From Desulfarculaceae bacterium (GTDB lineage: Bacteria; Desulfobacterota; Desulfarculia; Desulfarculales; Desulfarculaceae), in NCBI GenBank assembly GCA_963675675.1, contig OY776512.1:6031966-6055965 (forward strand): a stretch of 24,000 bases of DNA, read 5' to 3'. Made by a program: the position numbers and the translations under genes. The notes beneath the pieces were generated by a model. The model ran no database searches. It was not told the DNA's origin and worked only from the letters and a program-made list of their open reading frames with translations. The first letter of the stretch is position 1; every line of letters starts with the position of its first letter. This document shows positions 12,186-12,522 of the stretch, piece by piece.

Positions 12186-12212
12186 TTGACATTGCCAGGG
12201 CTTTTGTATAAG
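12186..12212 (+). promoter_or_regulatory. Sigma-70-like promoter for the leader / aromatic fusion gene transcript
   Basis: TTGACA (12186-12191) and TATAAG (12207-12212), with a short 15-bp spacer. It lies about 65 nt upstream of the leader ORF. Confidence 0.45.
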
Positions 12213-12275
12213 TGTTTAAAAGACAAACGCAACAAACACAGCCGCAATAAGCGGCCAAGGAGCACCCGGAGCAAG

Positions 12276-12347
12276 ATGGTCATGAAGAAATTCCGCAGCT
12301 ATTACAGCTTTTATTTCTTTTTTAGCACCATCCACCCGGGCGGCTAA
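12276..12347 (+). CDS. Phe/Tyr-rich leader peptide, 23 aa (MVMKKFRSYYSFYFFFSTIHPGG)
   Basis: Hand translation from ATG 12276 to TAA 12345-12347. GGAG at 12267-12270 and AAGGAG at 12257-12262 lie upstream. There are 5 Phe and 3 Tyr codons, including the run F-Y-F-F-F at 12309-12323. The ORF end overlaps the first arm of a 14-bp stem, and a terminator follows. Confidence 0.6.
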   Translation: MVMKKFRSYYSFYFFFSTIHPGG

Positions 12348-12400
12348 CCTTAGCTAAAAAATAGGCCCGGGTGGATGGAAACTCCGCCCCGGGGCCCGGC
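12328..12400 (+). promoter_or_regulatory. Alternative-pairing region of the candidate attenuator
   Basis: Perfect 14-bp inverted repeat CCATCCACCCGGGC (12328-12341) / GCCCGGGTGGATGG (12365-12378). GGCCCGG occurs at 12364-12370 and again at 12393-12399. GGCCCGGG (12364-12371) can also pair with 12388-12396 (8 bp with one bulge). Confidence 0.5.
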
Positions 12401-12401
12401 G

Positions 12402-12440
12402 AACCCTGAGGACAAAAAGTTCCTCGGGGTTTTTGTGTTT
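12402..12440 (+). terminator. Intrinsic terminator (attenuator) upstream of the aromatic fusion gene
   Basis: AACCCTGAGGA (12402-12412) / TCCTCGGGGTT (12421-12431): an 11-bp stem with one G-U pair and an 8-nt loop, followed by a T-rich run to 12440 (TTTTTGTGTTT). It ends 83 nt before the ATG at 12523. Confidence 0.65.
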
Positions 12441-12522
12441 ATGGGCCAATAATAGATTGAAACAGGCCATGGCGGCCTAGATCAATACCTTTACGGAACA
12501 GCCTTGGTTGGGAGGACGCATC

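Follow-up and report, generated by a model that had tools for sequence, protein, structure and literature searches.

The subject of this report is the region directly upstream of a gene for a fused enzyme of aromatic amino acid biosynthesis, found in a 24,000-nucleotide (nt) stretch of DNA from a Desulfarculaceae bacterium (GenBank assembly GCA_963675675.1, contig OY776512.1, positions 6,031,966 to 6,055,965 of the forward strand). We refer to this whole stretch as the window, and coordinates are counted from its first letter. The gene occupies 12523-14418 on the + strand; Pfam recognizes the domains DAHP_snth_FXD, DAHP_synth_1, PDT and ACT, and the NCBIfam names agree. In other words, the enzyme joins prephenate dehydratase and an ACT domain to a type I-beta 3-deoxy-D-arabino-heptulosonate 7-phosphate (DAHP) synthase that has a ferredoxin-like domain at its N terminus. 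A terminator scan finds the gene's own terminator at 14442-14469, and the gene is therefore monocistronic. In front of it lies a candidate leader-peptide attenuator: a short open reading frame (ORF) rich in aromatic codons, followed by alternative RNA helices and an intrinsic terminator. A first-pass annotation, made from the letters of the sequence, had proposed ribosome-mediated attenuation here, and we have followed up that proposal computationally.

The leader ORF, MVMKKFRSYYSFYFFFSTIHPGG followed by a TAA stop codon (12345-12347), spans 12276-12347 (+) and is identified both from the sequence and from 44 homologous loci. An alternative in-frame start lies at 12282, such that the leader is 21-23 codons long depending on which ATG is used, with the same aromatic codons read from either. 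Eight of the 23 codons are aromatic, five for phenylalanine (Phe) and three for tyrosine (Tyr), and they form a regulatory codon cluster at 12291-12323 (+): F6 at 12291, Y9-Y10 at 12300-12305, and F12-Y13-F14-F15-F16 at 12309-12323. This last run, FYFFF, is the sole run of five or more aromatic codons in the six frames of the window, and a run of that length occurs in just 6.5% of shuffled windows. Within the ORF there is also an 8-bp hairpin, in which 12284-12291 (Lys codons, GAAGAAAU) pairs with 12313-12320 (Phe codons, AUUUCUUU), with no overlap with the RNA segment called A below; it could be a polymerase pause hairpin, or it could reflect chance complementarity of AAR and UUY codons.

The start signals are present but not ideal. 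Reading from the sequence, two Shine–Dalgarno (SD)-like motifs lie at 12257-12271 (+), AAGGAG at 12257-12262 and GGAG at 12268-12271. The first-pass annotation had credited the ORF with an SD, which is right as to presence; the strong AAGGAG, however, is 13 nt from ATG 12276, and the weaker GGAG is only 4 nt from that codon (10 nt from the in-frame ATG 12282). The case of the promoter is similar. A candidate sigma-70-type promoter lies at 12186-12213 (+), with TTGACA as the -35 element (12186-12191) and, as the -10 element, either TATAAG (12207-12212) or TG-n-ATAAGT (12205-12213). The TTGACA/TATAAG pair that had been pointed out is indeed there, but its spacer is 15 nt (16 nt if the -10 is taken as ATAAGT after TG) and its -10 is imperfect, because of which our consensus scan, covering spacers of 16-18 nt, did not call it. 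An A-rich stretch (12160-12177) sits just upstream of the -35, in the position of an UP element. Transcription would start near 12219.

Downstream of the codon cluster, five RNA segments can be defined on the + strand. Segment A (CCATCCACCCGGGC, 12328-12341) comprises codons T18-G22, the last codons of the leader ORF; segment B (GGCCCGGGTGGATGG, 12364-12378) can take either A or C as its partner; and segment C (CTCCGCCCCGGGGCCCGG, 12382-12399) pairs in constraint folds with B when A is masked or with D when A:B has formed. Segments D (12401-12412) and E (12421-12432) make up the intrinsic terminator, which extends over 12401-12440 with the U-rich run UUUUUGUGUUU at its end. The A:B helix consists of 14 perfect bp (12328-12341 with 12365-12378) and carries the stop codon in a 5-bp apical stem (12342-12346 with 12351-12355); B:C joins 12364-12375 to 12383-12396. 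The terminator hairpin D:E, first described as an 11-bp stem plus U-run at 12402-12440, is confirmed and computes as 12 pairs, 6 of them G-C, with an 8-nt loop and a stability of -19.5 kcal/mol; it ends 83 nt before the ATG at 12523. GGCCCGG occurs twice (12364-12370 and 12393-12399), and a CCCCGG or CCGGGG core is common to B, C, D and E. A check against the sequence located everything that the first-pass annotation had listed, from the ORF with its SD and Phe/Tyr codons to the 14-bp stem, the GGCCCGG pair, the terminator and the gene; the picture it drew was incomplete in that the regulatory codons precede segment A and are not part of it.

From these segments, helices can form in two combinations that exclude each other, B:C plus D:E (the terminator set) and A:B plus C:D (the antiterminator set). 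The antiterminator, which the first-pass annotation had left undefined, is in our folding model C:D, 12388-12394 with 12404-12411, freed when A:B forms. The whole of 12215-12445 folds with a z-score of -6.06 relative to 200 shuffles. In search of a stronger antiterminator, D and E were scanned for duplexes with all of the upstream sequence, and C was the only partner found. The pairing of C with E (-16.3 kcal/mol) is more stable than C:D, but we set it aside as an antiterminator, as it forms only after E has been made, when D:E competes locally. Pairing of the SD/start region (12266-12280) with A, in two 5-bp blocks, never appeared in minimum-energy folds and was dropped. As a separate observation, a 9-mer of segment B, CCGGGTGGA, is also found inside coding regions at 6318-6326 (-), 8365-8373 (+) and 21524-21532 (-); its 5 matches in the window, compared with 0.66 expected, are probably due to codon or composition bias.

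Is this arrangement conserved? Relatives of the enzyme were sought in one genome per species and in metagenome contigs, giving 160 loci. The closest, at 75-78% identity, come from records labelled uncultured 'delta proteobacterium' or Syntrophobacteraceae-like, which are metagenome-assembled genomes; Desulfobacterales enzymes follow at about 55%, and those of Spirochaetes, Clostridia and others at no more than 50%. A short ORF with a Phe run lies directly upstream of the same fused-enzyme gene in 44 of the 160 loci, and all 44 belong to Syntrophobacteraceae, Desulfobacterales, 'delta proteobacterium' records or related metagenome contigs. Among the same 160, the Spirochaete, Clostridia, Atribacterota and Thermoanaerobaculia loci have no Phe-run leader ORF. 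As a control for chance, the reverse strand of the same upstream regions yields 6 ORF matches in 152. The comparisons that follow concern 45 sequences, namely the window and these 44 orthologous loci, with the leaders aligned as A2.

Alignment of orthologous leaders is the comparison that the first-pass annotation had named as able to overturn its proposal, and the mini-ORF and its aromatic codons prove to be conserved in it. On average the leader frame holds 6.0 Phe codons and the other frames 2.5 and 2.7, and the leader frame is the richest in Phe codons in 45 of 45 sequences; insertions and deletions within the Phe run come in multiples of three. Most homologous leaders have an ATG with an SD-like sequence, and TTGAC recurs in 30 of them at a consistent distance upstream of the assigned start (about 54-68 nt in Desulfobacterales and about 76-101 nt in the closest relatives), although the script behind these start assignments misplaced some starts and left out the last sequence, and its output is used only qualitatively. 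Leaders typical of Desulfobacterales end in GRFFFF(F)RSVHPxx before the stop codon, and those of the closest relatives end in FFGFFRTIRPGSF (L085) or GFFFFFSSVRPGD (L084). Phe is the only aromatic residue of the run in most leaders. Tyr codons replace part of it in the window, L053 and L088, and tryptophan (Trp) codons, with or without Tyr, are mixed in at four loci: GRFFWFYWF (L013:1310-1375), GRFFCFWWF (L069:1291-1353), GRFFYWWF (L095:400-465) and GRFLGFWRF (L097:390-455). The codon content of these four suggests that several aromatic amino acids are sensed in those lineages. The stop codon lies just after segment A in every homologue except L082, where (L082:340-375) a TAG immediately precedes segment A, apparently through a point change relative to L001 and L060; a ribosome halted there would nonetheless mask most of A.

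Conservation of the ORF, with its position kept and its start signals present, could also mean that the product is a functional hydrophobic micropeptide, or that the mini-ORF acts on translation only (through coupling or re-initiation), with no transcriptional attenuation involved. We regard this as highly improbable. The peptide is variable outside the Phe run, and what is conserved toward the 3' end of the ORF is the RNA, which some members read in another frame: the nucleotides of segment A are kept even where the frame is off by one base (SLDPPG in L060 and L001 vs TIHPGG in the window), and His-to-Arg changes in A retain pairing via G-U, from which it follows that the constraint is on RNA, not on the peptide. 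Additionally, the ORF is set apart from the gene by over 100 nt and by a canonical intrinsic terminator. In the family alignment, no block is better conserved than segment B.

Two features of the relatives go beyond what is found in the window. In Desulfobacterales, a hairpin that we call H0 (GGACGCTTCT ... AGAAGCGTCC) holds the Phe run in its loop and overlaps A with its 3' arm; Gly-Arg before the Phe run and Arg-Ser-Val after it are conserved because the H0 arms are encoded there. The corresponding sequestration of A by an H0-type hairpin is not seen in the window, where only 4 of the 10 pairs of the family helix can form and the alignment to the model shows mismatches. The second feature is a U-run after B:C, found in 27 of the 45 family members, many of them Desulfobacterales (e.g. 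L009:255-308), which gives them two tandem terminators, both under the same relay (L004, L006, L007, L009, L036, L096 and L098 are examples). The window has no U-run after B:C. A U-rich tail 3' of D:E is nearly universal, being present in 43 of the 45.

Covariation supports both sets of helices. The terminator set, here including H0 together with B:C and D:E, is 89.7% paired and 17 of its pairs have changed on both sides; none of 500 shuffles reaches the percentage paired or the covariation score, 1 of 500 reaches the count of two-sided changes, and controls slid out of register are 34-59% paired. Considered individually, B:C is 89.4% paired with 5 covarying pairs and D:E is 94.7% paired with 7 of its 10 pairs covarying. 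The antiterminator set is 94.9% paired (A:B 96.7%, C:D core 91.9%), compared with 24-62% when slid. Given the alignment alone, RNAalifold predicts B:C and D:E, with compensatory change in 13 of 22 pairs. A covariance model, R1, built from the 44 other members with the window left out, recovers the window element at 12302-12441 over its full length (model positions 1-144) with 64.4 bits and E=1.4e-12. Searched against the 160 loci, R1 returns only its training sequences and one truncated copy (L083); by these sequence searches, the element is restricted, as far as relatives of the enzyme were sampled, to the Desulfobacterales/Syntrophobacterales group. R1 has a second, weak match in the window at 1686-1798 (+; 15.4 bits, E=0.048), where a U-run and a CCCCGG...CCGGGG hairpin (1761-1795) follow closely on an ilvD-like gene that ends at 1665. 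We rejected it as a second leader; it is probably the terminator of the ilvD-like gene, with a chance resemblance to the terminator half of R1.

In B, C, D and E, the CCCCGG core is better conserved than pairing alone would demand, an observation that fits an attenuator controlled by a protein or a ligand, for example a regulator that binds the four CCCCGG/CCGGGG repeats, with the Phe-rich ORF as a by-product of a U-rich tract. The weak antiterminator of the window, described below, could likewise call for an extra factor. We nevertheless give control of this kind only a slim chance, as the enrichment in Phe is specific to the leader frame in 45 of 45 sequences, the length of the Phe run changes in whole codons with Tyr and Trp codons substituting, and the leaders have starts with SD-like sequences in most members and a stop just after segment A. 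There is also no Rfam match to a riboswitch or a T-box: Rfam has no match at gathering score, and up to E=10 in 12100-12560 it has no relevant match, the sub-threshold hits being chance ones. On the same searches we discarded a T-box leader, for which the region has no Rfam covariance match, and membership of the enterobacterial Phe leader family, for which there is none up to E=10 in 12100-12560.

How might the state of A be passed on to the terminator? We folded the leaders only to the end of D, before the 3' arm of the terminator is made, with A available or removed. Of the 45 minimum-energy folds with A available, 33 contain A:B and 35 contain C:D; without A, 43 of the 45 contain B:C and C:D persists in only 6. 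The window itself behaves in the same way. When its RNA is free from 12323 or 12329, corresponding to a ribosome with F12 or F14 in the A site, A:B and C:D form; when it is free from 12359, as with a ribosome at the stop codon, B:C forms and D is left open. When the RNA is free from 12335 (a stall at the last Phe codon), B:C is already favored, since the second copy of GGCCCGG then takes up the 3' half of A; the competing pairings that the first-pass annotation had expected from this duplication are thus borne out. Six of the eight aromatic codons are far enough upstream to leave A free. The contrast between ribosome positions that the first-pass annotation had hoped to see in such folds is therefore found before E is made, in the form of mutually exclusive structures, but not at equilibrium, where the terminator forms in either state.

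Several observations weigh against a working attenuator in the window. With E present, the pair probability of the window terminator is about 1.0 whether A is free or masked. The C:D state (-9.1 kcal/mol vs -24.5 kcal/mol for the terminator state) is the weakest antiterminator in the family, for which the means are -17.7 kcal/mol (antiterminator) and -24.4 kcal/mol (terminator), and the window is far from the near-equality of E. coli pheL-pheA, at -23.3 and -24.6 kcal/mol, respectively, with the same parameters. This weakness arises largely because D reads CCCUGAGG instead of CCCCGAGG. A stall at either of the last two Phe codons partly covers A and favors the terminator-permissive fold. The C:D pairing is partly automatic, as B, C, D and E share their core, and the covariation evidence for C:D therefore rests mainly on one pair. 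The window has neither the H0 hairpin nor the first terminator found in relatives, and the spacings of its promoter and its SD sequences are suboptimal. As the terminator wins at equilibrium in either state of A, control must be kinetic, with C:D forming first and delaying the terminator. In other words, the argument for a switch rests on co-transcriptional order and not on thermodynamics, and equilibrium probabilities do not separate the ribosome states. On these model energies, the regulatory range in the window may be small. What can be said of the antiterminator is thus that it now has a predicted identity and coordinates, and that in the window it is weak.

A terminator that is predicted in every state at equilibrium, followed by an unusually long gap to the start codon in the window (83 nt), is also what one would see if the leader transcript, ending at about 12440, were a separate small RNA or short transcription unit and the fused-enzyme gene had its own promoter in 12441-12522. 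This seems to us unlikely, with odds a little better than those of protein or ligand control. The promoter scan finds no promoter in 12441-12522, the U-run in most homologues ends about 20-45 nt before the start codon and leaves no room for one, and the element is found nowhere but immediately before this gene, sharing its orientation in 45 of 45 sequences.

Having weighed these alternatives, we consider it likely that a ribosome-mediated leader-peptide transcription attenuator controls the monocistronic fused DAHP synthase/prephenate dehydratase gene; the proposal of ribosome-mediated attenuation is strongly supported by the 44 orthologous loci, by covariation and by the fold switch. That the leader is translated, where the ribosome stalls, how the helices compete kinetically and how the gene responds to amino acid supply are inferred, and the mechanism would run as follows. 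Transcription would begin near the start given above, and a ribosome would translate the leader. When charged Phe-tRNA (and probably Tyr-tRNA) is plentiful, the ribosome would reach the stop codon at 12345 and cover A (12328-12341); B would then pair with C, leaving D free for E, and the terminator would end the transcript near 12440. When charged tRNA is scarce, the ribosome would come to a halt within the first six aromatic codons (12291-12315) with A exposed. The 14-bp A:B helix would form, the released C would pair with D and occupy the base of the terminator stem, and polymerase would read into the gene. Sensing of Tyr alongside Phe is plausible from the codon content of the leader.

A bolder version of this model is that the attenuator is codon-programmable, that is, that lineages tune which aromatic amino acids are sensed by how their leaders combine Phe, Tyr and Trp codons, that many of them relay the signal to two tandem terminators, and that Tyr limitation de-attenuates the window gene independently of Phe. 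We offer this version tentatively, as an idea that may well prove wrong.

Among characterized systems, the closest in purpose is pheL-pheA of E. coli and Salmonella. In it, too, a short leader ORF contains consecutive Phe codons and ends near the segment that pairs first, a prephenate dehydratase gene is preceded by alternative hairpins plus an intrinsic terminator, and the logic, here predicted, is that stalling leads to read-through. The differences are considerable. There is no detectable homology in sequence or structure (Rfam, E<=10), and the peptides are unrelated besides the Phe run. In pheL-pheA the Phe codons are inside segment 1 of a four-segment switch, whereas in the window they are upstream of A in a five-segment relay; the pheL-pheA antiterminator is about as stable as its terminator, unlike that of the window. 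Additionally, Tyr codons are mixed into the window leader, and its enzyme is fused to DAHP synthase, not to chorismate mutase. The E. coli record annotates a 'Phe leader region', and the Rfam family of pheL-pheA is 'Phe leader'.

In architecture, the better comparison is with the his leader of Salmonella and E. coli, which is a six-segment relay with A:B, C:D and E:F as alternatives to B:C and D:E. There, as here, an alternating chain of helices passes the state of the first helix to the terminator, and the relatives with H0 match the six segments of the his leader: the H0 5' arm, the H0 3' arm/A, B, C, D and E. Unlike the his leader, the present family would sense another amino acid and has unrelated sequences, the window is without the first helix, and 27 of the 45 members have tandem terminators. 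The first-pass annotation had placed the element with the pheA, trp and his leaders together. The attenuator logic is indeed theirs, but the five-segment relay (six in relatives) is his-like and not of the four-segment pheA/trp type.

The element is not covered by Rodionov et al. (2004), whose subject is delta-proteobacteria. The only prior mention that our literature search found, in which coverage of subscription journals was incomplete and earlier descriptions are possible (for instance in the comparative surveys by Vitreschak/Gelfand or Lyubetsky), is a single sentence in Gurvich et al. 2011 (PMC3082878) on a putative pheL of Desulfobacterium autotrophicum. That pheL most likely belongs to the same family, judging from the Desulfobacterales loci, which carry the ...GRFFFF(F)RSVHP leader. 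Gurvich et al. (PMC3082878) give no structure or distribution for it and no Syntrophobacterales members.

The remaining features of the window touch the attenuator only by proximity. The reverse-strand neighbors at 14886-19863 and 20784-22193 are an Ldh_2 family dehydrogenase, a TAXI-type TRAP transporter (a fused DctM, DUF1850 and an NMT1_3 binding protein) and a 6-phosphogluconate dehydrogenase; they are unrelated to aromatic synthesis, and the attenuated gene therefore stands alone. Upstream, the stretch of about 700 nt between a ferredoxin-like gene and the leader promoter (11471-12160) has no ORF longer than 58 codons and no Rfam match, and contains a terminator-like hairpin at 11807-11827 (+). 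Farther away, a 2519-codon ORF (1772-9331, +) encodes a giant hybrid sensor kinase with Peripla_BP_4, two SBP_bac_3, several PAS, GAF, HisKA, HATPase_c, two receiver and Hpt domains. Its listed GTG start at 1772 is inside a terminator-like hairpin, and the true start is probably further downstream.

What does the leader add to the field? The understanding of the attenuation mechanism is unchanged. What is gained is a conserved RNA family with at least 45 members and no Rfam counterpart, for which there are now a usable alignment and a covariance model. Classical leader-peptide attenuation of Phe biosynthesis would be extended to sulfate-reducing and syntrophic Desulfobacterota, in which regulation has been little studied. 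Leaders that mix Phe, Tyr and Trp codons differently, with or without the first terminator, represent a natural series for the study of how attenuators are tuned. If the codon-programmable version is true, such tuning would match an enzyme that acts at the shared first step as well as in the Phe branch. With this unusual fused enzyme under attenuation, the entry of carbon into the whole aromatic pathway would depend mainly on the charging of Phe-tRNA.

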